Below are positions 2,652-60,744 of a stretch of 64,000 nt of DNA, one piece after another (the stretch's first letter is position 1; each line of letters opens with the position of its first letter). The notes below the pieces were generated by a model. That model was given only the letters and a program-made list of their open reading frames with translations, did not search any database and was not told the DNA's origin. The translations under genes were made by a program, and so were the position numbers. Source of the stretch: Candidatus Parcubacteria bacterium. GTDB taxonomy: Bacteria > Patescibacteriota > Minisyncoccia > Minisyncoccales > JAGMDC01. The stretch is taken from the NCBI GenBank assembly GCA_023130975.1, contig JAGMAD010000003.1, positions 129,692 through 193,691 on the forward strand. Direction: 5' to 3'.

Positions 2652-3580
2652 TGACAAAGAAAATGATAATCTTAAAAAGATATATTAAAAATCCTATTCT
2701 TAAACCGATAAAAAACCATCATTGGGAAGAATACGTTTACAATTGTGCTGCAATAATCTTGGATAATAAGGTTCATATAGTTTATAGAGCTTTAAGCAGA
2801 GATAAAATATCAAGGCTTGGTTATGCATCAAGTAAAGATGGTTTTAAAATTGATGAAAGGTTAGAGAAACCAATTTTTGTCCCAGAATTAGAATCTGAAA
2901 AGCCAATGGTAAAGTTCAATAATTCTGGTATTGAAGACCCGAGATTAACAAGGATTGGTGACAGAATTTATATGCTTTATGCCGGCCTAAATGGTAGAAC
3001 AGCTCAATCATCTATGGCTTCTATTAAAGTTGAGGATTTTTTACAAAAGAAATGGAATTGGAAAAGGCATGGGGTTCTTTTCCCAAATATTGACGATAGA
3101 AATGCAGGTTTATTTCCAGAAAAGATAAATGGTAAATATGTCCTTTATACAAGGTTTATGCCAAATATTTGGGTAAGTTATTCAAGGGATTTGAAAAACT
3201 GGTCAAGGCCAAAAATAGTAATGAAACCAAGAAAAGGGATGTGGGATGAATACAAAATTGGCATAGCTGGACCTCCTCTAAGATTGAATAATTCTTGGCT
3301 ATTGATTTATCATGGAGTTGAACAAAAGCAAGCCGGAAGATTTGGAAGAGTCTACAGATTAGGATTCGCTTTAATAGACCTTAAAGACCCGGAAAAAATT
3401 TTATATAGATGTGAAAAACCAATTTTTGAACCAGTCAAGAATTATGAATTAAAAGGACAAGTTCCAAATGTGGTTTTTTCATGTGCTGCTGTTATTAAGG
3501 GAAAGACACTTTTTGTTTATTATGGTGGTGCCGACACTGTAATAGGGGTAGCTACTGCAGACATTTCTAAGCTTCTTTGA
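2651..3580 (+). CDS. GH130/DUF377-like glycosidase-related protein
   Basis: GIEDPRLTRIGDRIYMLYAG and overall beta-propeller-like composition are typical of DUF377/GH130. Confidence 0.45.
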   Translation: MTKKMIILKRYIKNPILKPIKNHHWEEYVYNCAAIILDNKVHIVYRALSRDKISRLGYASSKDGFKIDERLEKPIFVPELESEKPMVKFNNSGIEDPRLTRIGDRIYMLYAGLNGRTAQSSMASIKVEDFLQKKWNWKRHGVLFPNIDDRNAGLFPEKINGKYVLYTRFMPNIWVSYSRDLKNWSRPKIVMKPRKGMWDEYKIGIAGPPLRLNNSWLLIYHGVEQKQAGRFGRVYRLGFALIDLKDPEKILYRCEKPIFEPVKNYELKGQVPNVVFSCAAVIKGKTLFVYYGGADTVIGVATADISKLL

Positions 3581-3834: not shown

Positions 3835-4599
3835 ATGACACGGATTATTTCCATCGCCAATCAGAAAGGCGGAGTTGGAAAATCAAATGTTGCAGTTAAT
3901 CTTCCGGTTTTTTTAAGCGCTAAGGGAAAGAAAGTTTTGTTAGTGGATATGGATCCTCAGGCAAATGCTACTTTGAGTTTAGGCATTAACTGCCGCAATT
4001 TGCCTCTTTCTATTTATAATGTTTTAATGGACCAGATTACTCCTTCAGCTATTATCAGGAAGACCTCGTTTTTTGGATATGATATTATGCCGGCTTCTCC
4101 GGATTTGGCTGGTGCTACTGTAGAATTAGTAGAAGCAAAAAATCGAGAGTTCAAATTAGCTCAAATTTTAAAAAAAGTTGAAGAACCATACGATTTTATT
4201 ATCATTGATTCTCCTCCGAGTTTAGGAATTCTAACCCTTAATACCTTAGTTGGTTCCAAAGAGGTTTTAATTCCGGTTCAATGCGAATATTTGGCTTTGG
4301 AAGGATTAGGACAACTTTTAGATACAATTGCCTTAGTGAAAAATAATCTTGGTCAAGATTTAAAAATTGCCGGCGCTCTATTAACAATGTATAATAGAAA
4401 AAATCGTCTTTCCAGGGACGTAGCTAAAGAAGTTAGAAGGAATTTTCCTGGCTATGTCTTTGACAGCGTTATTCCCAGAAGCGTGGCTTTAGCTGAAGCG
4501 CCCAAATATGGCCAGACCATTTTACAATATGCTCCCGGCTCTCAAGCAGCCAAGGCCTATAGAGAATTAGCCGAAGAACTTATCAACAGAAATGACTAA
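3835..4599 (+). CDS. parA: ParA/Soj chromosome-partitioning ATPase
   Basis: N-terminal KGGVGKS deviant Walker A and ParA-like length. Start placed at the ATG downstream of the tRNA. Confidence 0.85.
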   Translation: MTRIISIANQKGGVGKSNVAVNLPVFLSAKGKKVLLVDMDPQANATLSLGINCRNLPLSIYNVLMDQITPSAIIRKTSFFGYDIMPASPDLAGATVELVEAKNREFKLAQILKKVEEPYDFIIIDSPPSLGILTLNTLVGSKEVLIPVQCEYLALEGLGQLLDTIALVKNNLGQDLKIAGALLTMYNRKNRLSRDVAKEVRRNFPGYVFDSVIPRSVALAEAPKYGQTILQYAPGSQAAKAYRELAEELINRND

Positions 4600-4724
4600 T
4601 AACTAATTCCTAATTACTAATCAAATCCCAATGACCAATGACTAAATGACTAAAAACTTTTAGACATTAGACATTTTGGAATTAGACATTGATTAGAAAT
4701 TAGACATTAGAAATTAGAAATTCC
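4600..4724. repeat. direct-repeat (iteron-like) spacer between parA and parB
   Basis: There are 3 copies of AATGAC(C/T)AA and 4 copies of TTAGACATT plus AGAAATT repeats. parA and parB are usually adjacent. Confidence 0.4.
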
Positions 4725-5621
4725 ATGAAACAATCTTTTGGTAAAGGCATAGAATCTTTAATTCCTAAGAAAAAACAAAAAAACATTGAAAAGCCAGTCA
4801 GTAAAAAAGAAGCAGTTTTTTCTATTGAGATTGAAAAAATAAAATCTAATCCCTATCAACCAAGAAAAGAGTTTAATATGGAAGCATTAAATTCCTTAGC
4901 TGAATCAGTTAGGGAGCACGGAATTTTACAGCCATTAATTGTTACTAAAATTGAAACAAGAGACTCAAAAGGTAAGAGTACGAGGACCGAATATCAATTG
5001 ATTGCTGGTGAAAGGCGTTTAATGGCTTCAAAAATAGCCGGTTTGAAAGAGGTGCCGGTAATTATAAGAAAGCCCACAGACAGAGAAAAGTTAGAAATGT
5101 CTTTAATTGAAAACGTCCAACGTTTTGACTTGAATCCAATAGAAAAAGCAGAAGCATTTAATCATTTACATAAGAAATTTGGTATGACTCATGAAAAAAT
5201 TAGTGAGATGACAGGAATAGGCAGGGTAGCAGTAACTAATCATATTCGACTTTTGGATCTCTCTGAGGAAATAAAAGAAGCAGTTAGGGCAGGAAAAGTC
5301 AATGAAGGCCAGGCCAGAGCGATTTTACTTACTAAAGGACCAAGAAAACAAAAAGCCGTTTTTCAGAAGATATTAAAAGACGGCTTAAATGTCAGGGAAT
5401 CAGAATATTTTGCTCAAAAACTTAATGTCTGGAAGCCGATGAAGAATAATTTAAAAACAGGAATTTCTGATGAGATAATAAATTTCGAAATGCGATTCAA
5501 AGAAATTTTTGGAGTAACTGCTAAAACTATTCGGCTGGTCTTGGAAAAAGGCAGGCCTAAATTAACAGTTTTTTTTGATTCCAGAAGCGGAGTTAAAAAA
5601 GTATTAGAAAAATTGAAATAA
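4725..5621 (+). CDS. parB: ParB/Spo0J partition protein
   Basis: ParB box LIAGERRLMASK and an HTH region. Confidence 0.85.
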   Translation: MKQSFGKGIESLIPKKKQKNIEKPVSKKEAVFSIEIEKIKSNPYQPRKEFNMEALNSLAESVREHGILQPLIVTKIETRDSKGKSTRTEYQLIAGERRLMASKIAGLKEVPVIIRKPTDREKLEMSLIENVQRFDLNPIEKAEAFNHLHKKFGMTHEKISEMTGIGRVAVTNHIRLLDLSEEIKEAVRAGKVNEGQARAILLTKGPRKQKAVFQKILKDGLNVRESEYFAQKLNVWKPMKNNLKTGISDEIINFEMRFKEIFGVTAKTIRLVLEKGRPKLTVFFDSRSGVKKVLEKLK

Positions 5622-14587: not shown

Positions 14588-14766
14588 AATATGATGGAAA
14601 CATTAGATTTTATTTTCGCTTTTATCCTGGTCTTACTTTTAATATACCTTTTACTAATTTGGTAAAAACTTGTTTTGGAATTTAATAAAAGGTTGATTCC
14701 TTGACAAATAAATAAAAAACTTTTAACTTTAAACTATAACTTTTCACTTTTCAATTCGAGCTTTGC

Positions 14767-14803
14767 GAGAATCAAGGTTCTTGCTGAAAGCGAGGTTCTT
14801 ATT
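14767..14803. repeat. AGAACCTTG-family repeat unit (inverted)
   Basis: gagaatcaaggttcttgctgaaagcgaggttcttatt upstream of fusA. Confidence 0.55.
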
Positions 14804-14824
14804 TTTAACTTTTAACTTAAGCGT

Positions 14825-18384: not shown

Positions 18385-18470
18385 TTTAGATAATAGATAA
18401 TAGATGATAGATAAGTATTGACATAATTCTTTTATTTTATTACCATTAAAATATACAAAAATTAAAAAAT

Positions 18471-18599
18471 ATATAAAATAAAGATTTAGATAATAGAGAT
18501 TAGAATTTAGGTAATTTTTTATCTAACATCTAACATCTAATATCTAAAATCCAATTATGGCTGAGAAAGAAAAATTTGAAAGAGGAAAAACCCATCTTA
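18471..18599 (+). repeat. copy A of a 129-bp perfect duplication (tuf promoter, leader and first 14 codons)
   Basis: Identical to 19688-19816. Confidence 0.85.
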
Positions 18600-19627: not shown

Positions 19628-19687
19628 ATTCAACTTAGATAGGGCATTTCTTAAATTAACAAAGAATATAAAATAGAATATAAAATA

Positions 19688-19816
19688 GAATATAAAATAA
19701 AGATTTAGATAATAGAGATTAGAATTTAGGTAATTTTTTATCTAACATCTAACATCTAATATCTAAAATCCAATTATGGCTGAGAAAGAAAAATTTGAAA
19801 GAGGAAAAACCCATCT
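19688..19816 (+). repeat. copy B of the 129-bp duplication (native tuf promoter/5' end)
   Basis: Identical to 18471-18599. It is preceded by 3x AATATAAAATAG tandem repeats. Confidence 0.85.
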
Positions 19817-20975
19817 TAATATTGGTACTATTGGTCACGTAGACCATGGTAAAACCACTCTTACAGCAGCTATTCTGCATGTTTTAAGGTTAAAAGGTCT
19901 TAAGGCATCAGAGAAAGCAGTGGAGCAAATTGATTCTGCTCCAGAAGAAAAAGCCCGTGGTTTAACTATTAACATTGCCCATTTAGAGTATGAGACAGAT
20001 AAAAGACACTATGCTCATATTGATTGTCCGGGCCATGCTGATTACATTAAGAATATGGTTACTGGTGCCGCTCAAATGGACGGAGCAATTTTAGTGGTTT
20101 CGGCTGCTGATGGTGTTATGCCTCAAACCAGAGAGCATATTTTGCTTGCTCGCCAAGTAGGATTATCTCAAATAGTGGTGTTTTTAAATAAATGCGATAC
20201 TGTAGATGATCCTGAGATAATTGATTTAGTTGAGTCAGAAGTAAAAGAGCTTTTAAAGAAATACGAATTTCCAGGAGATGAAATCCCAATTGTTCGCGGT
20301 TCAGCTCTTAAAGCCCTGGATGTAAAATCAGCTGACGATGAAGCCGCCAAACCAATTTTGGATTTAGTTAAAGCAGTAGATGATTACTTTCCTGAACCAA
20401 CTCGGGATATTGATAAACCATTTTTAATGGCTGTTGAGGATGTTTTCTCTATTGCTGGAAGAGGAACTGTTGCTACTGGCAGGATTGAGCGAGGAATAGT
20501 TCATCCAAACGATGAGGTAGAAATTGTTGGTTTTAAACCTACTCAAAAAACAGTGGCAGTGAGCGTGGAAATGTTTAATAAGATGCTTGATGAAGGAAGA
20601 GCCGGTGATAATGTCGGAATTTTACTTCGCGGACTCAAGAAAGAAGAGGTGGAAAGAGGACAAGTTTTAGCAAACCCCGGCAGCATTACTCCTCATACTG
20701 AATTTGACGGTGAAATTTATGTTTTAACCAAAGAAGAAGGCGGAAGACATTCTCCTTTTTTTGCCGGTTATAAGCCGCAATTTTACATTCGAACTACTGA
20801 TGTTACTGGAGATGTTGCTTTGCCAGAAGGGACAGAAATGGTTATGCCTGGAGATACTGTTAATCTAAAAGTTAAATTAATAGCTCCGGTTGCCCTTCAA
20901 GAAAAACAAAGATTTGCTATAAGAGAAGGAGGCAAGACCGTAGGCGCAGGAGTAGTGACGAAGATCATTAAGTAA
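19776..20975 (+). CDS. tuf: elongation factor Tu
   Basis: [18 protein letters not shown] and NKCD motifs; 399 aa. Confidence 0.9.
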
Positions 20976-21009
20976 GTTAAAAGTAGAAAGTTAAAAGTTA
21001 AAAATAAAC

Positions 21010-22107: not shown

Positions 22108-22216
22108 TTTCCAGAATTTCTAATTTCTAATAAATTTCTAATTCTTTAATTTTTAATTGAAAATTGGAGCATTGAAAATTGATTGAAAATTGATAATTGA
22201 TAATTGAAAATTTATC
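22108..22216. repeat. heptamer tandem-repeat spacer: (AATTTCT)n then (ATTGAAA)n
   Basis: 7-bp periodic AT repeats between rplC and rplD. Confidence 0.6.
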
Positions 22217-22858
22217 ATGGAAATCGAAACTTATAACCAAAATGGAGAAAAAGTAGGAAAAGCAGAACTTCCCGACGAAATATTCGGTTTAGATTTTAGT
22301 CCTGATTTGGTTCATCAGGTTGTTGTTTCGCAAATGGCAAATCGAAGGCAAGTTAGTGCTCATACTAAAGACAGGAGTGAGGTTCGTGGAGGTGGCAGGA
22401 AACCCTGGAGACAAAAAGGCACTGGTAGAGCAAGACATGGTTCTATCCGTTCACCTTTATGGAAAGGAGGAGGCGTAACCTTTGGTCCGACTAAAGAAAG
22501 AGATTTTAAAAAAATAATTCCTAAAAAAATGAAAAGAAAGGCTCTTTTTATGGTTTTAAGCCAAAAGGTAAAAGACAATGAATTGGTTGTCTTAGATGAG
22601 CTGAAGATTGAGAAACCGAAGACAAAAATAGTAAAAGAAATAATCCAGAATCTGAAATCAAAAATTAAAAACATTAAAACAGAAAGTTTTCTAATCACTT
22701 TACCAAAGATGGATAAGAATATTATTTTATCAACCAGAAACATTCCTAAAATAGCTACTATTCAAGCAAAAGAATTAAATTGTCTTGATATTTTAAATTA
22801 TAAATATTTGATGCTTCCTAAAGAAGCAATTGCAGTAATAAAGGAAACCTTTTTATGA
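22217..22858 (+). CDS. rplD: 50S ribosomal protein L4
   Basis: L4 pattern (GGGRKPWRQKGTGRAR). Confidence 0.85.
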   Translation: MEIETYNQNGEKVGKAELPDEIFGLDFSPDLVHQVVVSQMANRRQVSAHTKDRSEVRGGGRKPWRQKGTGRARHGSIRSPLWKGGGVTFGPTKERDFKKIIPKKMKRKALFMVLSQKVKDNELVVLDELKIEKPKTKIVKEIIQNLKSKIKNIKTESFLITLPKMDKNIILSTRNIPKIATIQAKELNCLDILNYKYLMLPKEAIAVIKETFL

Positions 22859-23346
22859 AAATATTAGATTTTTTTAAAAAAAAGAAAAAACCGGAAGTTA
22901 AAGAAGAAGTAAAACCGAAAGAGGAGGTAAAAAAGGAAGTAAAAGTAAAAAAAGAGGTAAAAAAGCCGCCGAAAGTTAGTGTTTTAAAACCAAAACCCGC
23001 CTTCGTTAAAAGAACCTCGACTGAGCTCGGTCGAAGTCCTTCGGCGGGCAAGGAGAAAAAGGTTGATTTGGCTTGGAAGGTTTTAGAGACACCTCATATT
23101 TCTGAAAAAGCCACTGACTTAACAAAGCAAAATAAGTATGTTTTTAGAGTTTTTCCTAAATCAAATAAAAAAGAAATAAAAAAAGCAGTGGAAGATATTT
23201 ATGGGATAGATGTTTTGAATGTTAAAATTATTAAAATTCCCAGAAAGAAGAAAATGAGAGGCAGGGTTTCTGGCTGGAAAAAGGGCTATAAAAAAGCAAT
23301 TGTGAAAGTAAAAGAAGGCCAGAAGATTGAATTATTACCAAGATAA
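22855..23346 (+). CDS. rplW: 50S ribosomal protein L23 with a ~60-aa Lys-rich N-terminal extension
   Basis: The core AWKVLETPHISEKAT is preceded by KKKKKPEVKEEVKPKEEVKK. The extension contains a GC-rich structured insert at 22993-23050. Confidence 0.8.
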   Translation: MKILDFFKKKKKPEVKEEVKPKEEVKKEVKVKKEVKKPPKVSVLKPKPAFVKRTSTELGRSPSAGKEKKVDLAWKVLETPHISEKATDLTKQNKYVFRVFPKSNKKEIKKAVEDIYGIDVLNVKIIKIPRKKKMRGRVSGWKKGYKKAIVKVKEGQKIELLPR

Positions 23347-24223: not shown

Positions 24224-24346
24224 AATAAATTTTCAATTTTCAATTTTCAATTTTCAATGAATTTTCAATGATTTAATTTTCAATTAGAAATTAAAGAATT
24301 AGAAATTTAATAGAAATTAGAAATTAGAAATTAGAAATTTTGGATT
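24224..24346. repeat. heptamer tandem-repeat spacer: (TTTTCAA)n then (AGAAATT)n
   Basis: Reverse-complement arrangement of the 22108-22216 element. Confidence 0.6.
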
Positions 24347-24659: not shown

Positions 24660-25196
24660 ATGGCCATTACAGCAAAATTAAAATATCTTCATATAGCTCC
24701 GAGAAAAGTTCGTTTAGTAACTGATTTGATTCGCGGAAAAAGGGCTGAGGAAGCTCAAACGATTTTGAATTTTAGTTCTAATAGAGCATCTCAACCATTA
24801 TTGAAACTGCTTAAATCCTGTATAGCTAATGCCAAAAATAATTTTCAAATTGAGCAGGAAAACCTTTATGTATCAAAGATTTTTGTTGATGAAGGACCAA
24901 AACTAAAAAGATGGCATGCTCAATCAAGAGGTCGAGCTGCTGAAATTCAAAAAAAAAGCTCTCATATTTGTTTAGAAATAAGTGAGATTAAAAAGAAAGC
25001 TAAAAAAGTTAAAAAGGTAGCAAAAACAAAAGAAAAGATTGTTGAAAAGAAACCCTCCCTTGCTGAAGTTAAGGAAGGTAAAAGAGACGAAGAAGCTCCA
25101 AAAATAGAAAAACCAAGAACAATCATTAGGAAAGAAAAACCTATGCCCAAAATAAAACAAACCATGAAGAGAGTATTTAGACGAAAGGCATTCTAA
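24660..25196 (+). CDS. rplV: 50S ribosomal protein L22 with a ~65-aa Lys-rich C-terminal extension
   Basis: L22 core (KYLHIAPRKVRLV) followed by a KKAKKVKKVAKTKEK... tail. Confidence 0.85.
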   Translation: MAITAKLKYLHIAPRKVRLVTDLIRGKRAEEAQTILNFSSNRASQPLLKLLKSCIANAKNNFQIEQENLYVSKIFVDEGPKLKRWHAQSRGRAAEIQKKSSHICLEISEIKKKAKKVKKVAKTKEKIVEKKPSLAEVKEGKRDEEAPKIEKPRTIIRKEKPMPKIKQTMKRVFRRKAF

Positions 25197-25274
25197 CTAA
25201 ATAGATATTAAATGATGGATTATAGATGTTAGTTAATTATCTAAAATCTAAAATCTAATATCTAAAATCTAACT

Positions 25275-27999: not shown

Positions 28000-28550
28000 T
28001 TAAACTAAAAGACAAATATATTAAAGAAGTAGTGCCGGCTATGAAAAAAAAGTTTGAATACAAGAACAGTATGGCTGTTCCTAAAATTGAGAAAGTAGTG
28101 ATTAATAATAGTTTTGGCAGAATGATAATAGATAAAACATCTGATGAGAAAAAAAAAATTAAAGAAGCAATTATACAGGATTTGTCTTTAATCTGCGGTC
28201 AGCGTCCAGTTTTAACTAAAGCAAAGAAGTCCATTTCTACTTTTAAAGTTCGTCAAGGTATGGAAATTGGGGCAAAAGTTACTTTGAGAAAGAAAAAAAT
28301 GTATGATTTCTTAGATAGGTTAATTCATATTACTCTTCCTCGCTCTCGTGATTTTCGAGGTATTGACCCTAAATCAATTGATGAAAAAGGAAATTTAACC
28401 ATCGCTATCAAAGAACATATTTCTTTTCCAGAAGTATCGCCAGAGAAGACAAGGTTTCTTTTTGGATTTGAAATAACTGTGGTGACTACTGCCAAAGATA
28501 AAAAACAGGGATTAGAATTATTAAAATTGTTGGGATTCCCGATTAAATAG
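27996..28550 (+). CDS. rplE: 50S ribosomal protein L5
   Basis: L5 pattern. The start overlaps the rplX stop (ATGA). Confidence 0.8.
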   Translation: MIKLKDKYIKEVVPAMKKKFEYKNSMAVPKIEKVVINNSFGRMIIDKTSDEKKKIKEAIIQDLSLICGQRPVLTKAKKSISTFKVRQGMEIGAKVTLRKKKMYDFLDRLIHITLPRSRDFRGIDPKSIDEKGNLTIAIKEHISFPEVSPEKTRFLFGFEITVVTTAKDKKQGLELLKLLGFPIK

Positions 28551-28644
28551 ATATTAGATGATAGATTATAGATTATGGATAATAGATGATGAAAAATAAA
28601 AATCCAAAATCCAACATCTAATATCCAACATCTAAAATCCAATT

Positions 28645-30494: not shown

Positions 30495-30578
30495 TTTCGG
30501 TAAGCTTAAAATTTCTAATTTCTAATTTTTAATTTCTAATAAAATCCCAAATAAAATCCCAAATTCTAAATTAGTATT

Positions 30579-31073: not shown

Positions 31074-31470
31074 ATCAAAGAGAAAAAAAAGAATTGGTCG
31101 CGGTGGCAAACGCGGTACCTTTTCTGGTCGTGGAGTAAAGGGACAAAAATCGCGTTCTGGAAGAAAATTAGAGCCGATTGTCCGAGGATTAATTAAAAAA
31201 TATCCTAAGTTAAGAGGATATAAATTTAATGAATGGAAAACCAAGCCAGTTGTAGTTAGCATTGGCAGTTTAGAGAGATTTGAAACTGGAGAAAAAATTA
31301 ATCCATCTGTCTTGCTTGAAAAGAAAATAATTCCTAAAATAAAAGGGAGAGTGCCAAAAGTAAAAATTTTAGGAAAAGGCGAACTGACTAAGGCACTGAC
31401 TATTGAAAATTGCGATATCTCAAAATCTGCCAGAGAGAAGGTAGAAAAAGCCGGAGGCAAAATAAAGTAA
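31042..31470 (+). CDS. rplO: 50S ribosomal protein L15 (directly after rpsE, no rpmD)
   Basis: L15 Gly/Arg-rich N-terminus. Overlaps rpsE by 32 nt, and no L30 gene intervenes. Confidence 0.8.
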   Translation: MQLHQLHPKHKSKRKKRIGRGGKRGTFSGRGVKGQKSRSGRKLEPIVRGLIKKYPKLRGYKFNEWKTKPVVVSIGSLERFETGEKINPSVLLEKKIIPKIKGRVPKVKILGKGELTKALTIENCDISKSAREKVEKAGGKIK

Positions 31471-31580
31471 ATTTTTAATTTCCAATTTTTAATTTTATAA
31501 ATAAATCCTAATTTTTAATTTTTAAAAATTTGAGCATTAAAAATTATTTAAAAATTACAAAATTATAAAATTGTTTTTTT

Positions 31581-32879: not shown

Positions 32880-32941
32880 CTCAATTTTAGTAAAAACTAA
32901 AATTGAGAATTTCTAATTTCTAATTTTTAATTTCTAAACAT

Positions 32942-42334: not shown

Positions 42335-43010
42335 TATGCTTAGTTTATCTGCCAAAATTAGAAAAGAAGAGAAATCAGGTACCCTTAGAAATAAGGGTCT
42401 TTTGCCCGCGGTTCTTTATGGGCCAAAGATAAAAAATCTTTCTTTACAGGTAGATGAAAAAGAATTTGAAAAAATTTTTAAAGAAGCAGGCGAAAGCTCA
42501 TTAATTAAGTTAAAAGTTGGTGAGGATGAATTCTTGGTTTTAGTCCATGATCTTCAAAAAGATCCCTTAAAAGGTAATTTTATTCATATTGATTTTTATC
42601 AACCCGTCCTTGACGAAGAAACTGAAGCTACTGTACCCTTAGAATTTATTGGCGAGGCAGCGGCAGTGAAAGAATTAGCAGGAACATTGGTTAAAAATAT
42701 TAAAGAATTAGAAGTAAGAGCTTTGCCTCAAAATCTTCCTCATGATATTAAAGTCAATGTGGAAAGCTTAAAAACCTTTGAAGACACTATTACAATAAAG
42801 GATTTAAAAATTCCAGAAGGGGTAAAAGTGTTAAAAGAACCGGAGGAAATTATAGCTTTAGTTACTCCTCCGGAAAAAGTAGAAGAAGAATTAGAAAAGC
42901 CAGTTGAGGAAAAAGTAGAAGAAGTAGAGAAAGTAGGCGAGAAAGAGAAAGAAGAGGAAAGAGAAGAGAAAGAGGCGGAAAAAGGCGAAGAAGAAAAAAA
43001 AGTTAGTTGA
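42324..43010 (+). CDS. rplY: 50S ribosomal protein L25/Ctc with a Glu/Lys-rich C-terminal tail
   Basis: L25 N-terminal pattern (RNKGLLPAVLYG). Confidence 0.7.
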   Translation: MKINMLSLSAKIRKEEKSGTLRNKGLLPAVLYGPKIKNLSLQVDEKEFEKIFKEAGESSLIKLKVGEDEFLVLVHDLQKDPLKGNFIHIDFYQPVLDEETEATVPLEFIGEAAAVKELAGTLVKNIKELEVRALPQNLPHDIKVNVESLKTFEDTITIKDLKIPEGVKVLKEPEEIIALVTPPEKVEEELEKPVEEKVEEVEKVGEKEKEEEREEKEAEKGEEEKKVS

Positions 43011-43046
43011 AATTTTCAATTTTCAATTTTCAATTTTCAATTTTCA

Positions 43047-44453
43047 ATGAATTTTCAATTTTCAATTTTCAAACAAGCAATTTTATTTGTTCTTATATTA
43101 TTTTTGGTCTTACCTAGTTTTTTTCTATTAGCTGAAGAAGATTTAGAAGAAATCTGCCAGATAGAAAATATTGAGAAAAAAGAAAGCGAACTTTCCAAGG
43201 AAGATTACGAAGCTTTTTTAAAGAAATGCGAAGCATATTTTGTAGAAAAAAGCAAAGAGATTGAAAAGGATATCAATAAAACTGAAGCAGAGAAAAAGAC
43301 ATTGCAAAATAAAATTTATAGTTTAAGAAAAAAAATTCAAAACTTAAATTATAAAATCAATCAGAGCAATCTAATAATAAAAGACCTTGATTTACAAATT
43401 GGAGATACCCAGTTTTCCATAGAAGAAACCGGTTTAGAGATAGAAGATTTAAAGCAGAGATTAGTAAAACTTTTACGGCTTGTTTATGAAGAAGACCAAA
43501 AATCATTGATTGAGATTTTTCTTTCAGAAGAAGAAATCTCTGATTTCTTTGATAATTTGGTAGCATTGGAAATACTTAATTCTGAGAATCAAGAAATTTT
43601 AGATAATATTAAAAGCTTAAAATCTTATTTAGAAAATCAAAAAATATCCCTGGATGAAGAAAAGGAGGACAGAGAGAATACTCTTGCTGTTTATAATTTA
43701 CAAAAACAAGAAAATGCAGAAATAAAAAAAGAACAGGAATATTTTCTCAAATTAACTGAAAAAGAATATCAAAAGTATATTGCAGAGAAGGAAGAGACAG
43801 ATAAAACTGCTTCTGAGATAAGGGCTCGGATTTTTGAATTAGTCGGTGTTGTCAAAGCTCCTACTTTTGGCGAAGCATATGAATTAGCTAAGTATGTTCA
43901 GGGCATTACAGGAATTCGTCCTGCATTTTTGTTGGCGATTTTAACCCAGGAATCAAATATTGGTAAAAATGTTGGCCAATGTTATTTGAAAAATACAAAA
44001 ACAGGTGAGGGGATTTATATTAAAACAGGAAATACAGCTCCTAAGACAATGGGTCCTAAGAGTATTCCTAAGTTTTTGAACATTACCAAAGAGTTAGGAA
44101 GAGATCCTTATAGCACGCCTGTTTCCTGCTGTATGTATTACAAGGGCAAACCCTATGGCTGGGGAGGAGCAATGGGCCCAGCCCAGTTTATTCCTTCCAC
44201 TTGGGTTTTATATCAAGATAAAATAAGAGCAGTTACTGGAACTACTCCAGATCCTTGGAACATAAAAGACGCCTTTTTAGCGTCTGGTATTTATTTAAAA
44301 GAATTGGGCGGCAGTAGAAATGAATTTAAGGCAGCCATGCATTATTTTTCCGGAAGCACTTGGACTAAATATGAAGAATTTTACGGAAGGTCAGTAATAT
44401 CCTTAGCTGATAGATATGAAAAAGATATTGCTAAGCTTGAAAGCGAGAAGTAA
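43047..44453 (+). CDS. lytic transglycosylase (SLT domain) with an N-terminal signal/TM and coiled coil
   Basis: LTQESNIG (catalytic E-S) and GAMGPAQFIPSTW motifs. The N-terminal codons come from a (TTTTCAA)n repeat. Confidence 0.55.
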   Translation: MNFQFSIFKQAILFVLILFLVLPSFFLLAEEDLEEICQIENIEKKESELSKEDYEAFLKKCEAYFVEKSKEIEKDINKTEAEKKTLQNKIYSLRKKIQNLNYKINQSNLIIKDLDLQIGDTQFSIEETGLEIEDLKQRLVKLLRLVYEEDQKSLIEIFLSEEEISDFFDNLVALEILNSENQEILDNIKSLKSYLENQKISLDEEKEDRENTLAVYNLQKQENAEIKKEQEYFLKLTEKEYQKYIAEKEETDKTASEIRARIFELVGVVKAPTFGEAYELAKYVQGITGIRPAFLLAILTQESNIGKNVGQCYLKNTKTGEGIYIKTGNTAPKTMGPKSIPKFLNITKELGRDPYSTPVSCCMYYKGKPYGWGGAMGPAQFIPSTWVLYQDKIRAVTGTTPDPWNIKDAFLASGIYLKELGGSRNEFKAAMHYFSGSTWTKYEEFYGRSVISLADRYEKDIAKLESEK

Positions 44454-45706: not shown

Positions 45707-46501
45707 ATGACGGATAAAAAAGAAACCAAAGAGAAACAAAAAAAAGAAAAGGAAACCAAAAAAGAAAAACCAAAGGAAGAAAAAAAAGAAGTTAAAAAAG
45801 TTGCCAAGAAAGCACCTGATTTTAAAATTGATGTAGATGAAATGTTGGCAGTCGGAGTTCATTTCGGTCATCGGACTTCCCGTTTGCATCCCAAAATGGA
45901 ACCATATTTAGCTGGTGTCAAGAATACGGTTCATATCATTGATCTAGAAAAAACAGCGGAAAAATTGAAAGAAGCCCTGAAGTTCATCCAGGAAATTATT
46001 TCCGAAAATAAGGTCTTGCTTTTAGTGGGGACAAAAATTCAGATTAAAGATTTAGTTAAAGAAATTGCTCAAGAATGTGAATTACCTTATGTTAACGAAA
46101 GATGGCTGGGCGGCACTCTGACTAATTTTGAAGTAATTTCAAAAAGAGTTGGATACTTAAAAGAAATAGAAGAAAAAAAGGCAAGCGGAGCATGGGAAAA
46201 GTACACAAAGAAGGAAAGGATTAAAATGAATAGGGAATTTCAGAATCTCAAGACAAAATTTGAAGGTCTTAAAACACTCTCCAGAGTTCCTGATACTATG
46301 TTTGTTTTAGATATAAGAAAAGATGATTTAGCAGTGAAAGAAGCTAAAATGAAAGGGATAAAAGTAATTGCTATTTGTGATACCAATACCGACCCTAGTT
46401 TGATTGATTATCCTATTCCAGCAAATGACGATGCTATTTCATCTGTGAAATATATTTTAGAAAAGGTTAAAGAAGCAATACTAAAAACAAAGGCAAAGTA
46501 A
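45707..46501 (+). CDS. rpsB: 30S ribosomal protein S2 with a ~40-aa Lys/Glu-rich N-terminal extension
   Basis: S2 core from MLAVGVHFGH. Confidence 0.85.
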   Translation: MTDKKETKEKQKKEKETKKEKPKEEKKEVKKVAKKAPDFKIDVDEMLAVGVHFGHRTSRLHPKMEPYLAGVKNTVHIIDLEKTAEKLKEALKFIQEIISENKVLLLVGTKIQIKDLVKEIAQECELPYVNERWLGGTLTNFEVISKRVGYLKEIEEKKASGAWEKYTKKERIKMNREFQNLKTKFEGLKTLSRVPDTMFVLDIRKDDLAVKEAKMKGIKVIAICDTNTDPSLIDYPIPANDDAISSVKYILEKVKEAILKTKAK

Positions 46502-50181: not shown

Positions 50182-50283
50182 AAAGATGAAAGAAATAAGG
50201 AAAGTTCTTTGAAAATTTTTAGATTAAGAATTGAGTAAATTTAATTGGTTTTTTAGAGTTGTCCCGATTTTATTTGAGAGTTC

Positions 50284-50315
<32 letters not shown>

Positions 50316-50707
50316 GATAAGGCATGCAAGTCGAGGGGTCACCTTCGGGTGGCACCGGCAAACGGGTTAGTAACACGTGGATACATACCCTAAAGACTCG
50401 TATAACTCGGAGAAATCCGAGCTAATTCGAGATAGTCTGGTAGTCTATTTTTGGAAGTCAACTATAAGAATTTTTAATTTTCAATTTCTAATTTTTATTT
50501 AATTTCTAATTTTCAATGTTTAAAAAGCAACCCTACGGGGAATCCCGAACTTCATTCGGTCTAGAAATCATTAAAAATTTATTAAAAATTAAGAATTAGA
50601 AATTAGAAATTTTCTGCGTATTTAATAATAGATAAAGTTGATTTTTAGGAATAGGCTACCAGTAAAGGTTATACTTTGTATTTCCGCTTTGGGACTGGTC
50701 CGCGGCT

Positions 50708-50743
<36 letters not shown>

Positions 50744-52018
50744 GATGACGAGTAGGGGGCATGAGAGTGTGTTCCCCAACAATGGTACTGAGAACGGACC
50801 ATACTCCTACGGGAGGCAGCAGTCGAGAATATTGGGCAATGGGCGAAAGCCTGACCCAGCGACGCCGCGTGCGGGAAGAAGGTCTTCGGATTGTAAACCG
50901 CTTTTATTAAGGAACAATCCGCCAGTCGGCGGATGAGCGTACTTGATGAATAAGGAGCCGCTAATCACGTGCCAGAAGCGTCGGTAATACGTGAGCTCCA
51001 AGCGTTATCCGGATTTATTGGGCGTAAAGCGTCCGTAGGCGGTTTGAAAAGTCTTTGGTTAAATCCTAGGGCTTAACCTTTGGACTGTCAAAGATACTTT
51101 CAGACTAGAGGGTGTTAGAGGCTGATGGAACGGTCGGTGTAGGGGTGAAATCCGTTGATATCGACCGGAACACCGAAAGCGAAGGCATTCAGCTAGTGCA
51201 ACCCTGACGCTGAGGGACGAAAGCGTGGGTAGCGAATGGGATTAGATACCCCAGTAGTCCACGCTGTAAACTATGGACACTAGCTATTGGTAGTGTCGAC
51301 CCTATCAGTGGCGAAGCTAACGCGTTAAGTGTCCCGCCTGGGAAGTACGAGCGCAAGCTTAAAACTCAAAGGAATAGACGGGGACTCACACAAGCGGTGG
51401 ATCATGTGGCTCAATTCGACGATAAACGAAGAACCTCACCAGGGCTTGACATGCTAGTGAAATCCCGACGAAAGTTGGGACTACCCACAAGGACACTAGC
51501 ACAGGTGCTGCATGGTTGTCGTCAGCAGGTGTCGTGAGACGCTCCTTTTAATAGGGAAACCTGCGCAACCCTTGCCCTATGTTTTACTTGTCATAGGGGA
51601 CTGCCCGGGATAACTGGGAGGAAGGTGAGGATAACGCCAAATCAGCATGGCCCTTTGATGCCCTGGGCTGCACACATGATACAATGGCCGGTACAATGGG
51701 CTGCTTAACCGCAAGGCGAAGCAAATCCCTTAAAGCCGGTCCCAGTTCGGATTGAGGTCTGCAACTCGACCTCATGAAGCCGGAATCGCTAGTAATCGCC
51801 AATCAGCTATGTGGCGATGAATATGTTCCTGAGTCTTGTACTCACTGCCCGTCACACCAAGAGAGCTGGCAGTACCCGAAACCCCCCACCACTTTTCGTG
51901 AAGATATTTAGATTAAGAAGAATTTTTGAAAAAGTCTATTTTAAATTCTTTTGACGGTTTATAATTCATGAAAAGTGGTGGGGGGCTAAGGTAAGGTCAG
52001 TAATATGGGTGAAGTCGT

Positions 52019-52821
52019 AGATGTAATCTACTTGTTGCGACTCTTGAAAGGCAACTTTCAGGAAAAAACTTGGCTATATGCTGGAACATCTGTGTTATAA
52101 TAGAGTAATATGAGTAAAAGTTTATACGCAGACAATCAGCAGGGAAGTCTCCGCCAGCTGGCGGATGACCCCTCAGAGACTACACGCCGAGCCCCTCTTT
52201 CTAAAAGAGAAATTCAATCTTATTTTCTTGGAGCTATACATGATGGAACATTTAGTAGTAATCAAAGATTTCGAATTTCACAGAAAGGTACCCAATGGCT
52301 TAAATTTTTACAAAAACTTTTTGGCAAACTCGGTTACAATTCATGGATTTATAAAGAAGGTAAAAACAGAAAAGTTTATGTGTTAGAAACTTTAGCAGAT
52401 TTTTTAGATTTCAGATTTGATCCTTCGCGATTAAATACAAAAGAAGAAAAGATTGGTTACATAAAAGGATTTTTCGATGCCGAAGGTGGCATTCCTAGAG
52501 ATCACAAAGCAAGATTTTATATTCAGTTGACCCAGAATGATGAAGAAAAGCTCAAAAAATTAAAAGTAATGCTTAGTGATTTAGGAATAAAAACAGGAAA
52601 AATTCATAACCCAAGCCAAAAAGTAGATCCTGATTATTGGAGAATGTATGTTTTAGCAGGTTCACAAAAAACATTCGTAGAAAAAATAGGATCATGGCAT
52701 CCAAGAAAGATAAGAACCTTGAATCAAAGATTCAAGAACCTTGATTCCTTCGGGATTAAAAATTTTAGAAAAGAGGGTGAAGATATAGTCCATGCTCTAT
52801 AGCGATATAGGGACAAATATG
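52019..52821 (+). mobile_element. group I-type intron in the 16S gene (between E. coli-equivalent U1498 and A1499)
   Basis: The 5' exon ends ...GAAGTCGT, the intron ends with G, and the 3' exon resumes AACAAGG. The intron carries a LAGLIDADG ORF. Confidence 0.65.
52110..52802 (+). CDS. LAGLIDADG homing endonuclease (intron-encoded)
   Basis: Two LAGLIDADG-like motifs, FLGAIHDGTF and IKGFFDAEGGI. Confidence 0.7.
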   Translation: MSKSLYADNQQGSLRQLADDPSETTRRAPLSKREIQSYFLGAIHDGTFSSNQRFRISQKGTQWLKFLQKLFGKLGYNSWIYKEGKNRKVYVLETLADFLDFRFDPSRLNTKEEKIGYIKGFFDAEGGIPRDHKARFYIQLTQNDEEKLKKLKVMLSDLGIKTGKIHNPSQKVDPDYWRMYVLAGSQKTFVEKIGSWHPRKIRTLNQRFKNLDSFGIKNFRKEGEDIVHAL

Positions 52822-56926: not shown

Positions 56927-57048
56927 CCTTTTGCTTCGCAAAAGGAATTTCTAATTTCTAATTTCCAATCAATTTCTAATTTTCATTGAAAATTCTAAAA
57001 TTGAAAATTTAATGAAAATTGAAAATTGAAAATTGAAAATTAAATTTT
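56927..57048. repeat. terminator-like hairpin plus heptamer spacer: (AATTTCT)n then (ATTGAAA)n
   Basis: ccttttgc-ttcg-caaaagg followed by 7-bp periodic repeats. Confidence 0.55.
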
Positions 57049-57438
57049 ATGCCGCGTATTGCTGGGGTTAATATCCCGGAAAACAAACAAATAGAAATTG
57101 CTTTAACCTATATTTATGGAATAGGTTCGTCTTTGGCTATAAAAATTTTAGCAGAAGCCAAAATTGATCCTTATAGTCAGACCTCAAAGCTAACTCCAGA
57201 ACAAATTAATTTACTTAGAGAAATTATTGAAAAGAATTATAAAATTGAAGGAGATCTCCGACGGGAGAGAATGGTGGCTATAAAACGGCTGAAAGATATT
57301 GGTTGTTTAAGAGGAATTCGCCACATCAAGGGTTTACCAGTAAGAGGCCAAAGAACTAAAAGCAATAGTAGAACTATTCGCGGTAATGTGAGAAAAACAG
57401 TTGGTAGCGGAAGAAAGCCTGCTCCAACACCAAAGTAA
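57049..57438 (+). CDS. rpsM: 30S ribosomal protein S13
   Basis: MPRIAGVNIPENKQIEIALTYIYGIG. Confidence 0.85.
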   Translation: MPRIAGVNIPENKQIEIALTYIYGIGSSLAIKILAEAKIDPYSQTSKLTPEQINLLREIIEKNYKIEGDLRRERMVAIKRLKDIGCLRGIRHIKGLPVRGQRTKSNSRTIRGNVRKTVGSGRKPAPTPK

Positions 57439-57439
57439 T

Positions 57440-57892
57440 ATGGGTAAGAAACGTATTATTCAAAAAACTGAAAAAGAGTTGATTGAAGAAAGAGAAAAAG
57501 TAGAGGCAGCTGTAAAAAAAGAAGCAAAAATTCAACCTTCTAAAAAAGTGAAAGAAGGTAGAGTTTGTATTACTTCCTCTTATAATAATACGATTATTAG
57601 TTTAACTGATTTAGAGGGAAATATTTTAACTTGGGCAAGCGCTGGAAATATTGGCTTCAAGGGAACAAAAAAAGCCACTCCTTTTGCTGCTTCAAAAGTG
57701 GCTGAGGCATTGGTTCAGCGGGCTAGAAAAATAGGAATAGAGAGAGTGCAAATAATGGTAAAAGGTATTGGCAGCGGCAGAGATTCAGCCATTAGAGCAT
57801 TAGCTAACAAAGGTCTTGATATTCTATCTATTGAGGATGTTACGCCTATACCTCATAACGGATGCAGGCCTCGAAAAGCACGGAGAGTGTAA
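57440..57892 (+). CDS. rpsK: 30S ribosomal protein S11 with a Lys-rich N-terminal extension
   Basis: S11 core from GRVCITSSYNNTIISLTD. Confidence 0.85.
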   Translation: MGKKRIIQKTEKELIEEREKVEAAVKKEAKIQPSKKVKEGRVCITSSYNNTIISLTDLEGNILTWASAGNIGFKGTKKATPFAASKVAEALVQRARKIGIERVQIMVKGIGSGRDSAIRALANKGLDILSIEDVTPIPHNGCRPRKARRV

Positions 57893-58527: not shown

Positions 58528-58664
58528 AATTTTAAAAATTTTCAATTTTCAATTTTCAATTTTCATTAAATTTTCAATTAACTAATTTTCAATGAATTAT
58601 TTAGAAATTGAATCATTAGAAATTTAATAAAAATTAGAAATTAGAAATTAGAAATTTAATTTGT
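58528..58664. repeat. heptamer spacer: (TTTTCAA)n then (AGAAATT)n
   Basis: Same composite as 24224-24346. Confidence 0.6.
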
Positions 58665-59462
58665 ATGATTTCTTTACCCGACAAAATAAAAGTTATTGAA
58701 AAAAAAGATAATTGGGCCCGTTTTCAAATCCAAGCCCTTTATCCTGGTTATGGAGTTACTATTGGAAATAGTTTGAGAAGGGTTCTTCTTTCCTCATTAC
58801 AGGGGGCAGCTGTTACCCAGGTAAAAATTAAGGGAGTTTCTCATGAGTTCTCTGTTATTCCCGGTGTCTTAGAAGATATAGTTTCAATTTTATTAAACTT
58901 AAAACAATTGAGATTTAAAGTTTATGGTGATGAACCACAGAAGGCAGTTCTTTCGATAAAAGGTGAAAAAAAAGTGAAAGGTTCTGATTTTCAACTGCCC
59001 TCTCAATTGTCTTTAATAAACAAAGATGCTTTTGTGGTTACCTTGACTGATAAGAAAGCGGAATTAGAAATGGAGATTTTAGTCGAGAAAGGATTTGGTT
59101 ATGAACCAGTAGAATGGAGAAAAAAAGAAAAGTTAGAAATAGGTGAAATTCCTCTTGATGCTATTTTTACTCCAGTGAGAAAGGTTAGTTTTAATGTAGA
59201 GAATGTTAGAGTAGAGGAGAGAACAGATTTTGATAGTTTAGAGTTAGGGATTGAGACCGATGGAACCATTACTCCGGAACAAGCTCTTTTTCAGGCCTCT
59301 GAAATTTTAGTTAATCACTTTTCTTTATTTGTAGATATCTTTAAGGAAAAAGAGACAACAAAGCCGCCAGAAGCCGAAAAACCAGTAAAAAAGAAGAAAT
59401 CTACAAAGGCAAAAACTAAAACTACGATACAAAAGAAAAAAAAGAAAACACAAAAGAAATAA
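58665..59462 (+). CDS. rpoA: RNA polymerase alpha subunit with an N-terminal domain only and a Lys-rich tail
   Basis: NTD motifs (GYGVTIGNSLRRVLLSSLQGAAVT, HEFSVIPGVLEDIVSILLNLK). It ends at 265 aa with KKKKSTKAKTKTTIQKKKKKTQKK instead of an alphaCTD. Confidence 0.75.
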   Translation: MISLPDKIKVIEKKDNWARFQIQALYPGYGVTIGNSLRRVLLSSLQGAAVTQVKIKGVSHEFSVIPGVLEDIVSILLNLKQLRFKVYGDEPQKAVLSIKGEKKVKGSDFQLPSQLSLINKDAFVVTLTDKKAELEMEILVEKGFGYEPVEWRKKEKLEIGEIPLDAIFTPVRKVSFNVENVRVEERTDFDSLELGIETDGTITPEQALFQASEILVNHFSLFVDIFKEKETTKPPEAEKPVKKKKSTKAKTKTTIQKKKKKTQKK

Positions 59463-59842: not shown

Positions 59843-60190
59843 ATGGAAAGAAATACTCACACAATTGATGCAACAGACAAGGTATTAGGGAGATTAGCCA
59901 CTCAGATAGCGGTGCTGTTGCGTGGTAAGCACAAACCTGATTTTGTTCCCTATAAAGATATGGGAGATTTTGTTGTGGTAAAAAATGTTGATAAAATTAA
60001 AATTACTGGTAAAAAAATGGAGCAAAAAGTTTATTACCATCACAGCGGTTTTTTGGGCGGTTTGAAAGAAACTCCTCTTAAAAAACTTTTAAAAGAAAAA
60101 CCTGAAGAAGTCTTAAAAAAAGCGGTTTTTGGAATGCTGCCGAAGAATAAACTACGCAGTAAGATAATAAAGCGTTTAAAGATTAAGTAA
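59843..60190 (+). CDS. rplM: 50S ribosomal protein L13
   Basis: L13 pattern ([20 protein letters not shown]). Confidence 0.85.
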
Positions 60191-60195
60191 TTTTT

Positions 60196-60744
60196 ATGGA
60201 AAAAAAGAAACCAAAAAAAAATCCGTCATCCGCCAGCCGGCGGAGCGGAAAAAAAGAAAAGAAAAAAGAAGTTAAAAAAATAAAAAAAGTGATCCCTAAA
60301 ACAGTTGAGAAGAAACCCAAACCCAAACCCAAACTTACACCAAAACCCAAAAAAGCTTCTTACATAGAAGCAATTGGAAGAAGAAAGACATCAGTGGCTC
60401 GAGTGCGTCTTTGGACAAAAGGGGAAAAAGAGTTTTTAGTTAATAATAAACCATTAGAGGATTATTTTCCAAATCTTGAGATTCAGAAAATTGCTGCTGA
60501 TAGTTTAGATAAAATGAAAAGCCAGGACAGATTTAAAATCCAGGTTTTAGTAAAAGGAGGAGGTTTTCATTCTCAAGCTGAGGCAGTGAGGCATGGGGTA
60601 GCTCGGATTTTACTTAAATTTAATCCTGATTTTAAAAAACGTTTAAAAAAATCGGGTTTTTTAACCCGAGATCCCAGAATGAGAGAAAGAAAAAAATTCG
60701 GTCTCAAAAGAGCCCGTCGAGCTCCCCAGTGGAGAAAACGGTAA
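60196..60744 (+). CDS. rpsI: 30S ribosomal protein S9 with a Lys/Pro-rich N-terminal extension
   Basis: S9 core (GRRKTSVARVRLW...GGGFHSQAEAVRHGVARIL). Confidence 0.85.
   Translation: MEKKKPKKNPSSASRRSGKKEKKKEVKKIKKVIPKTVEKKPKPKPKLTPKPKKASYIEAIGRRKTSVARVRLWTKGEKEFLVNNKPLEDYFPNLEIQKIAADSLDKMKSQDRFKIQVLVKGGGFHSQAEAVRHGVARILLKFNPDFKKRLKKSGFLTRDPRMRERKKFGLKRARRAPQWRKR

Follow-up and report, generated by a model that had tools for sequence, protein, structure and literature searches.

[quoted passage not shown] It recognises UP elements and docks many activators, and it is needed for normal growth in model bacteria. The E. coli truncations alpha-235 and alpha-256, the work of Igarashi and Ishihama in 1991 and of Ross et al. 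in 1993, reportedly demonstrated that the N-terminal domain (alphaNTD) alone supports assembly and basal transcription, while UP-element and class I activation are said to be lost. These were laboratory constructs without a replacement tail, in contrast to the natural and conserved tail described below. Archaeal Rpo3/Rpo11 (RpoD/RpoL) and eukaryotic Rpb3/Rpb11 are homologues of the alphaNTD and naturally lack an alphaCTD.

Natural loss of the domain from a bacterial alpha subunit has been documented in the extremely reduced endosymbionts Hodgkinia and Tremblaya, and it is mentioned for Parcubacteria in one line (PMC8321222). The statement on Parcubacteria was not found in the text or supplements of Nelson & Stegen 2015, the source cited for it by PMC8321222. 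With an alpha subunit lacking the CTD, RNA polymerase assembles and keeps basal transcription, and UP elements and class I activators become unusable (summary in PMC8321222). The locus studied here resembles those of Hodgkinia and Tremblaya in that the alphaNTD is kept and the alphaCTD is lost in a small-genome, host-dependent organism, and in the predicted loss of UP-element and activator contacts. PMC8321222 differs in holding no analysis of Parcubacteria, and we found no basic tail described for the endosymbionts. In Parcubacteria the CTD has been lost patchily and repeatedly among close relatives, and a strongly basic tail stands in the place of the CTD.

The locus lies in a 64-kb stretch of DNA that was analysed as a whole and is called the window here. 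The rpoA gene (58665..59462, + strand) encodes a CTD-less RNA polymerase alpha subunit of 265 aa, assigned by Pfam, NCBIfam and PDB matches. The translated ORF has KKKKSTKAKTKTTIQKKKKKTQKK as its C-terminal end. The alphaNTD, which is the platform for dimerisation and beta/beta' assembly, comprises aa 1–225 (58665..59339, + strand). Both Pfam NTD domains are complete: the RpoA insert domain PF01000 matches over its full profile at residues 53–169 (E=1.7e-29), and the Rpb3/Rpb11-type dimerisation domain PF01193 over its full profile at residues 27–219 (E=4e-21). The full-profile matches and the ORF agree with a preliminary description of this DNA, which had claimed a complete alphaNTD in a protein ending at 265 aa. 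PF03118, the Pfam family of the alphaCTD, gives no match in the window RpoA even at E<=1.

The NCBIfam rpoA equivalogs cover only model positions ~2–257 of ~300–320. TIGR02027 scores 255.6 bits and passes the bacterial RpoA equivalog cut-off of 227.8, and NF003519 passes as well, with 280.4 against a cut-off of 277; for want of the C-terminal third of RpoA, the other six PRK05182 sub-models do not reach their cut-offs. RpoA chains in the PDB align only with residues 4–250 of the window protein (best E=7e-62). An identity as the archaeal subunit RpoD/Rpo3 was rejected, the model NF001988 scoring 29.8 bits against a cut-off of 153 bits. The archaeal Rpo3/Rpo11 are thus different proteins from the window RpoA, which passes the cut-offs for bacterial rpoA and not the one for archaeal RpoD.

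Structural modelling, which the preliminary description had recommended, gave a confident NTD and a disordered C-terminal end. With 45 homologues in the input, AlphaFold returned a pLDDT of ~87–94 over most of aa 11–230 of RpoA, and the order of strands and helices in the predicted NTD fold is canonical. The alignment with 45 relatives contains 47 invariant RpoA columns. The gene order S13-S11-S4-rpoA-L17 is kept, with ORFs at 57049, 57440, 57862, 58665 and 59488. The RpoA of the window is authentic and typical of its lineage; its bearer is a Nealsonbacteria-like member of the Patescibacteria (CPR, Parcubacteria/Paceibacteria).

The space in which a CTD would be encoded is bounded by rplQ (L17; 59488..59838, + strand; PF01196, E=1e-33). 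There is no room for a CTD, because rplQ starts 25 nt past the rpoA stop. A tblastn search of the window, for which the queries were 13 CPR CTDs and that of E. coli, returned a best match of E 0.039, located inside the L3 gene. A six-frame scan with a CPR-CTD HMM found no CTD in any frame of the 64-kb window at E<=1. When the same HMM was run in six frames over the window and 80 loci, it matched only in the rpoA ORFs of CTD-bearing loci. The claim that the alphaCTD is absent is therefore upheld by Pfam, by both searches of the window and by the position of rplQ. No CTD-like coding sequence was found in any frame, so that a frameshift restoring a CTD downstream of 59462, a caveat of the preliminary description, is refuted, and these 64 kb contain no separate CTD.

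An error of sequencing or assembly, either a truncation or a shift of the reading frame within an A-run, could in principle mimic a short alpha subunit. The coding region of the tail does include long A-runs, and public assemblies do contain frameshifted rpoA genes. However, the gap between the rpoA stop and rplQ is too short and CTD-like sequence too clearly missing from every frame for such an error, and the same architecture turns up in three or more independent datasets and dozens of further species, making an artefact extremely improbable. We regard the loss of the CTD as real with near certainty.

The nearest genome locus (L001, JAUWMZ01) comes from an independent Candidatus Nealsonbacteria MAG and is 94–95% identical. 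Its RpoA is likewise 265 aa long, the stop codon falls at the identical position, and rplQ follows after an equally short gap. The architecture is shared by two further, independent proteins from metagenomes, P0001 (ENA) and P0002 (JGI); together with L001 they measure 265–271 aa. Among the 120 nearest proteins in a collection of 5.8 billion, about 90 are 240–290 aa long and lack PF03118, and about 30 are 300–327 aa long and carry it.

The comparison of rpoA across CPR lineages suggested earlier was made on the complete genes of species-representative Patescibacteria genomes. The CTD is missing in 47 of these 79 genes and present in 32; the sample takes in Nealson-, Azam-, Moran-, Wildermuth-, Colwell-, Buchanan- and Gribaldobacteria, Minisyncoccales and Paceibacterota. 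Loss of the CTD among Patescibacteria is widespread and patchy. Neighbour-joining trees were built from 200 NTD sequences; on them, Fitch parsimony required 27 changes of state, with a bootstrap range of 24–33, a number of losses that is inflated by the noise of a single-domain tree. With shuffled states, 44–58 changes were needed. The CTD state is therefore phylogenetically clustered, yet has changed many times.

The window, L001, P0001 and P0002 form a clade in 173 of 200 bootstrap replicates. Its sister group was CTD-bearing in all 200 replicates, and in 187 of them consisted of the locus L002 and the protein P0003, with ~87% NTD identity. Outside the clade, the best CTD-less locus reaches 73% identity. 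Since the sister group bears the CTD in every replicate, the loss in the window clade is independent and recent.

A split subunit, in which the CTD is still produced by its own gene at another genomic locus and acts in trans, would also give a short RpoA. Four short metagenome contigs (L081–L084) carry a CPR-type CTD ORF of 77–106 aa directly upstream of rplQ, and the sequence upstream of that ORF is not rpoA-like; an Rfam search upstream of these ORFs detected neither an intron nor an ncRNA. Public data also hold many short ORFs with PF03118 only. Nevertheless, the four contigs measure only 0.7–1.3 kb, and the coverage of L081 is ~1.5x according to its record name. No CTD was found by the six-frame HMM in any frame within +/-6 kb of the CTD-less rpoA of 46 relatives, in addition to its absence from the window, and for 78 of 80 CTD matches in JGI metagenomes the CTD is fused in a full-length rpoA.

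Wider searches for standalone CTD genes gave a similar picture. The CPR-CTD profile had 14,529 matches among 1.84 billion representative proteins, of which the best 150 were mostly proteins with 2–13 tandem CTD-like repeats, with a few short single-domain ORFs. An index search yielded a list of 120 short ORFs with PF03118 as their only domain. Most of these lie on contigs below 3 kb and were rejected as fragments at contig edges. Each short CTD ORF that was checked on a long contig proved to be an artefact: L166 has an N-run gap in the linker, L165 and L167 are long-read contigs full of indel errors, and in L165 and L168 the linker is frameshifted and the CTD frame runs on upstream. A CTD without its tether would, moreover, lose the function of recruiting the polymerase. 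Within the sequences searched there is no sound evidence overall for a trans-encoded CTD, and a split alpha subunit is very unlikely.

In the place of the CTD, the window RpoA has a Lys-rich disordered tail of 40 aa, FKEKETTKPPEAEKPVKKKKSTKAKTKTTIQKKKKKTQKK (59340..59459, + strand), assigned by composition and AlphaFold. The tail is 45% Lys with a net charge of +14, and its distal half consists almost only of Lys and Thr. Residues 235–265 have a pLDDT below 50 and no secondary structure in the AlphaFold model. The tail is kept in L001, P0001 and P0002.

The tails of CTD-less proteins (n=141) have a median length of 37 aa (IQR 32–43), 41% Lys and a median net charge of +12 (IQR +8 to +15). The linkers of CTD-bearing proteins (n=58) have a median length of 24 aa, 26% Lys and a median net charge of 0; the difference in net charge is significant at p ~1e-22. 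The charge of the CTD-less tails is concentrated distally, with +10 in the distal half against +2 in the proximal, linker-equivalent half. The CTD-less tails are therefore more than leftover linker, being longer and far more basic.

The tail may nonetheless be a neutral remnant. According to this explanation, a symbiont poor in regulators could spare the CTD, which was lost by deletion, and the tail is the linker plus A-rich read-through, tolerated as a disordered and functionless end. Several observations are compatible with such an origin. The linkers of CTD-bearing relatives are already rich in Lys and Glu, an easy starting point for neutral change. The Lys fraction of the tail drops as genome GC rises (Spearman -0.66), and in the group with GC>0.5 (7 genomes, Moranbacteria-like) the tails are non-basic, with a net charge of -2; a basic tail is therefore not obligatory. 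The tail sequence also evolves faster than the NTD, the window and P0002 being only ~55% identical in the distal 20 aa and 87% identical in the NTD. Alignment of the DNA with the CTD-bearing L002 gave no convincing homology, and a recognisable remnant of CTD coding sequence within the tail was thus rejected.

A remnant of the linker would not be expected, however, to exceed the linkers by 13 aa and +12 in charge, with the excess placed distally. The length of the tails falls in a narrow range (the IQR given above) although stops arise easily in AT-rich DNA. Basic tails converge in most CTD-less clades, since the net charge is at least +6 in 28 of the 32 such clades on the tree, including the independently derived window clade (+11 to +14). 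A positional end motif, K[HDY][EA]KKKKRKK[TI]K, is common to 27 of the 141 CTD-less tails. The motif is missing from the window RpoA, as expected from the separate origin of the window clade.

The strongly basic termini of the window are almost confined to nucleic-acid-binding proteins. The last 30 aa of RpoA (+13) form the second most basic terminus of the 68 window proteins, and only 1 of the 33 window proteins without an assigned nucleic-acid-binding role has a terminus of at least +10. AT-rich codon bias alone is therefore insufficient to explain the tail. Weighing these points, we consider the neutral remnant rather unlikely and, from sequence comparison, the basic tail to be probably under selection. 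The part of the earlier interpretation that treated the tail as a basic module is accordingly supported: with +12 against 0 for linkers, its charge placed distally and an independent origin in the window clade, the tail looks like a selected module and not like linker debris.

The preliminary description had set the alpha tail beside Lys-rich extensions of ribosomal proteins. The lengths of these extensions were taken from Pfam domain boundaries. L23 has an N-terminal Lys/Glu/Val/Pro-rich extension of 75 aa (22855..23079, + strand), PF00276 starting at residue 76 of 163. L22 has a C-terminal Lys-rich extension of 73 aa (24975..25193, + strand), with PF00237 ending at residue 105 of 178 and a net charge of +10 in the last 30 aa. 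The N-terminal Lys/Pro-rich extension of S9 is 60 aa long (60196..60375, + strand; PF00380 starts at residue 61 of 182) with a net charge of +12 in the first 30 aa, and that of S2, which is Lys/Glu-rich, is 45 aa long (45707..45841, + strand; PF00318 starts at residue 46 of 264). S11 has 40 aa ahead of its domain, L18 an internal insert and S19 a C-terminal extension of 20 aa. For these seven proteins the Lys-rich extensions are borne out. In S12 the C-terminal extension is only 6 aa, accompanied by an internal/N-terminal insert. The claim does not hold for L25 (gene 42336-43010), whose 45-aa C-terminal extension (42873..43007, + strand) is acidic: PF14693 ends at residue 179 of 224, and the tail is Glu-rich with a net charge of -7 in the last 30 aa.

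Extensions of this kind are known from CPR ribosomes. In Tsurumaki et al. 2022 (PMC9297842), a Parcubacteria-specific Ala/Lys-rich C-terminal region is described for uS19, uS11, uS12, uL22, uL23 and bL25 are reported as enlarged in CPR, and uL13 is reported as shortened. The window extensions match those published there. The paper does not treat RNA polymerase, and the extensions of S9 and S2 were not seen singled out in its text. The uL13 of the window, with 115 aa, agrees with the shortened uL13 in PMC9297842.

The Lys-rich extensions of S9 and S11 have about equal length and Lys content in CTD-bearing and CTD-less relatives, and a coupling of CTD loss to the ribosomal-protein tails was rejected on this ground. 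A coupling to GC content was likewise rejected, with values of 0.37 and 0.38 for CTD-bearing and CTD-less relatives, respectively. The Lys-rich extensions of ribosomal proteins are a lineage-wide trait.

The spacers between the ribosomal-protein genes also figured in the earlier proposal. The S4-rpoA spacer (58528..58664, + strand) consists of an (AATTTTC)n array followed by an (AAATTAG)n array, detected by Tandem Repeats Finder at 58537-58593 and 58631-58656. Its RNA is predicted to fold into a long interrupted AU hairpin of -21.1 kcal/mol (z=-2.2). The heptamer spacers are real as described, period-7 arrays being common between the genes of the ribosomal-protein operons. The S4-rpoA arrays are present in L001 too, and the CTD-bearing L002 has an analogue with a different repeat sequence. 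No heptamer hairpin spacers were seen in nine more distant relatives that were inspected, eight of them CTD-less. Since a CTD-bearing relative has such a spacer and eight CTD-less ones have none, the spacers are not linked to CTD loss. The suggestion that the alpha tail, the ribosomal tails and the heptamer spacers belong together is thus not supported, the S9 and S11 extensions being alike in both types of relatives and the spacers not being coupled to the loss.

The architecture of the subunit suggests how a CTD-less polymerase might work. The alphaCTD, a helix-hairpin-helix domain of ~65 aa, has been deleted, and an intrinsically disordered tail of ~40 aa occupies its place. Because the alphaNTD is intact, alpha2 can still nucleate beta/beta' assembly. 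Without the CTD, UP elements would no longer be read and class-I-type activators would have no docking site. In CPR, a notable gap in the repertoire is that of CRP/FNR-type activators with ligand-binding domains (PMC12531629). At +14 per chain, the two chains would bring about +28 to each polymerase. The tail would leave the NTD at the exit point of the usual linker, from where DNA upstream of -35 could be within its reach. Most likely it would serve as a sequence-independent electrostatic tether, which would retain the non-specific upstream-DNA contact of the alphaCTD without its sequence or activator specificity.

We favor, as fairly probable, the reading that the tail is a selected, basic and disordered appendage that makes sequence-independent contacts to upstream DNA. 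Upstream promoter DNA as the specific ligand is a tentative assignment, which we infer from the position of the tail. A more doubtful generalization, though a possible one, is that in Paceibacteria the alphaCTD has been repeatedly discarded and each time replaced by a convergent poly-lysine tail acting as a minimal, sequence-blind clamp on upstream DNA.

Lys-rich tails with comparable properties occur elsewhere. The C-terminal ones of actinobacterial TopA and HupB, and those of histone H1-like bacterial proteins, increase processivity or the non-specific affinity for DNA, and they share with the RpoA tail a low-complexity, Lys-rich composition. They belong to other proteins and other phyla, and we know of none that replaces a lost folded DNA-binding domain of RNA polymerase. 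A parallel within RNA polymerase is archaeal Rpo13, a subunit with a disordered Lys-rich C-tail that is needed for non-specific binding of dsDNA (PMC3479171). Rpo13, however, is an unrelated subunit located near the downstream DNA, and the analogy extends to mechanism only.

The tail might instead be functional with another ligand, such as nascent RNA, the ribosome (in transcription-translation coupling), an acidic protein, or the nucleoid or a condensate. It has no sequence specificity, and many ribosomal proteins of the same genome bear comparable Lys-rich extensions that presumably contact RNA. A precedent may be seen in YidC, whose positively charged C-tails in other bacteria partially complement the loss of SRP; Nelson & Stegen made the comparison with parcubacterial YidC, parcubacterial genomes being without SRP genes (PMC4508563). 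The architecture of RNA polymerase nevertheless suggests that DNA is the nearest polyanion, as the tail exits where a normal linker steers the CTD towards DNA upstream. The analysis brought up no candidate for an acidic partner, and the tails of the ribosomal proteins vary independently of CTD loss. A partner other than upstream DNA is thus unlikely, and the contact to upstream DNA remains the preferred reading.

In view of the one-line mention in PMC8321222 and of PMC9297842, the bare loss of the CTD and the ribosomal-protein extensions are already known. CPR papers searched other than PMC8321222 do not mention CTD loss, and no analysis of the distribution, the recurrence or the basic replacement tail of CTD-less alpha was found in the full-text literature searched. 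That a basic tail has recurrently taken the place of the CTD thus appears to be undescribed in that literature.

For the study of CPR genomes, the patchy loss means that the length or domain content of rpoA is unsuitable as a flag of completeness or quality. Over half of the Paceibacteria species in the sample manage without an alphaCTD, through many separate losses, and nearly always have a highly basic, disordered tail instead. The CTD-less alpha subunit with its basic tail offers a concrete and testable model of simplified transcription initiation in ultra-small symbionts. If the proposed role of the tail is true, these bacteria would constitute a natural experiment showing that charge alone can do the core job of the alphaCTD, and that activator docking and the reading of UP elements may be dispensable in regulator-poor symbionts.

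The motif K[HDY][EA]KKKKRKK[TI]K closes 27 of the 141 alpha subunits without a CTD that were compared, among them the public proteins P0009, P0018, P0021 and P0054 and those of the genome or metagenome loci L003, L006, L009, L021, L026 and L027. It lies 0–4 residues from the C-terminus, and this conserved position points to a short linear motif, not to composition alone. The window RpoA does not carry it.

The N-terminal extension of S11 (MGKKRIIxKTEEELLKEREKVE..., nt 57440–57538) is well conserved among Paceibacteria, in lineages with CTD-bearing and CTD-less alpha alike, and is not low-complexity drift. L13 (nt 59843–60190) is only 115 residues long, in agreement with a truncation described for Parcubacteria (PMC9297842). 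The 45-residue tail of L25 (nt 42873–43007) is Glu-rich and strongly acidic, opposite in charge to the other extensions.

Tandem arrays of period 7 occupy sixteen intervals in the intergenic spacers of the window: nt 4591–4722, 14718–14818, 18387–18551, 19663–19770, 20974–21003, 22115–22212, 24228–24339, 25239–25272, 28546–28642, 30510–30564, 31470–31572, 32908–32937, 43011–43072, 50469–50611, 56946–57041 and 58537–58656. Many of these spacers fall within the S10/spc/alpha ribosomal protein operons, where genes are normally tightly packed. Typically (AATTTTC)n is followed by (AATTAGA)n, or the arrangement is the reverse complement, and the paired arrays together form long, interrupted AU-rich hairpins, which may be signals for RNA processing or termination. 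Arrays of the same kind are found in the spacers of L001, a close relative with a CTD-less alpha; L002, the locus of a relative with a CTD-bearing alpha, has an array at the equivalent position, but with a different repeat unit. No such spacer arrays were found in nine more distant relatives inspected.

The 16S rRNA gene (nt 50270–52037) spans 1768 nt against 1533 nt for the model, indicating insertions. It is followed by an ORF resembling LAGLIDADG-type homing endonucleases (nt 52110–52802) and then by alaS; since the 23S gene does not directly follow at this locus, linkage of the rRNA genes has apparently been lost.

Many proteins in public data consist of 2–13 tandem alphaCTD-like helix-hairpin-helix repeats (P0121–P0159; for instance P0126, 452 residues with 6 repeats, and P0143, 323 residues with 4), and in some of them the N-terminus is hydrophobic.

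On each of four short contigs from metagenomes, an ORF of 77–106 residues that encodes only a CPR-type alphaCTD lies immediately 5′ of rplQ (L081 nt 346–621, L082 nt 83–316, L083 nt 332–652 and L084 nt 179–421), and the DNA 5′ of these ORFs does not resemble rpoA. The contigs may hold genuine split alpha genes or may be chimeric low-coverage assemblies. Split rpoA calls in three other public assemblies were traced to frameshifts in the linker (L165 nt 5001–5195 and L168 nt 3001–3195), caused by indels in A-runs, or to a scaffold N-gap (L166 nt 4920–4935). The Lys/Glu-rich, A-rich rpoA linker is an error hotspot, and errors within it can pass for CTD loss under automated annotation.
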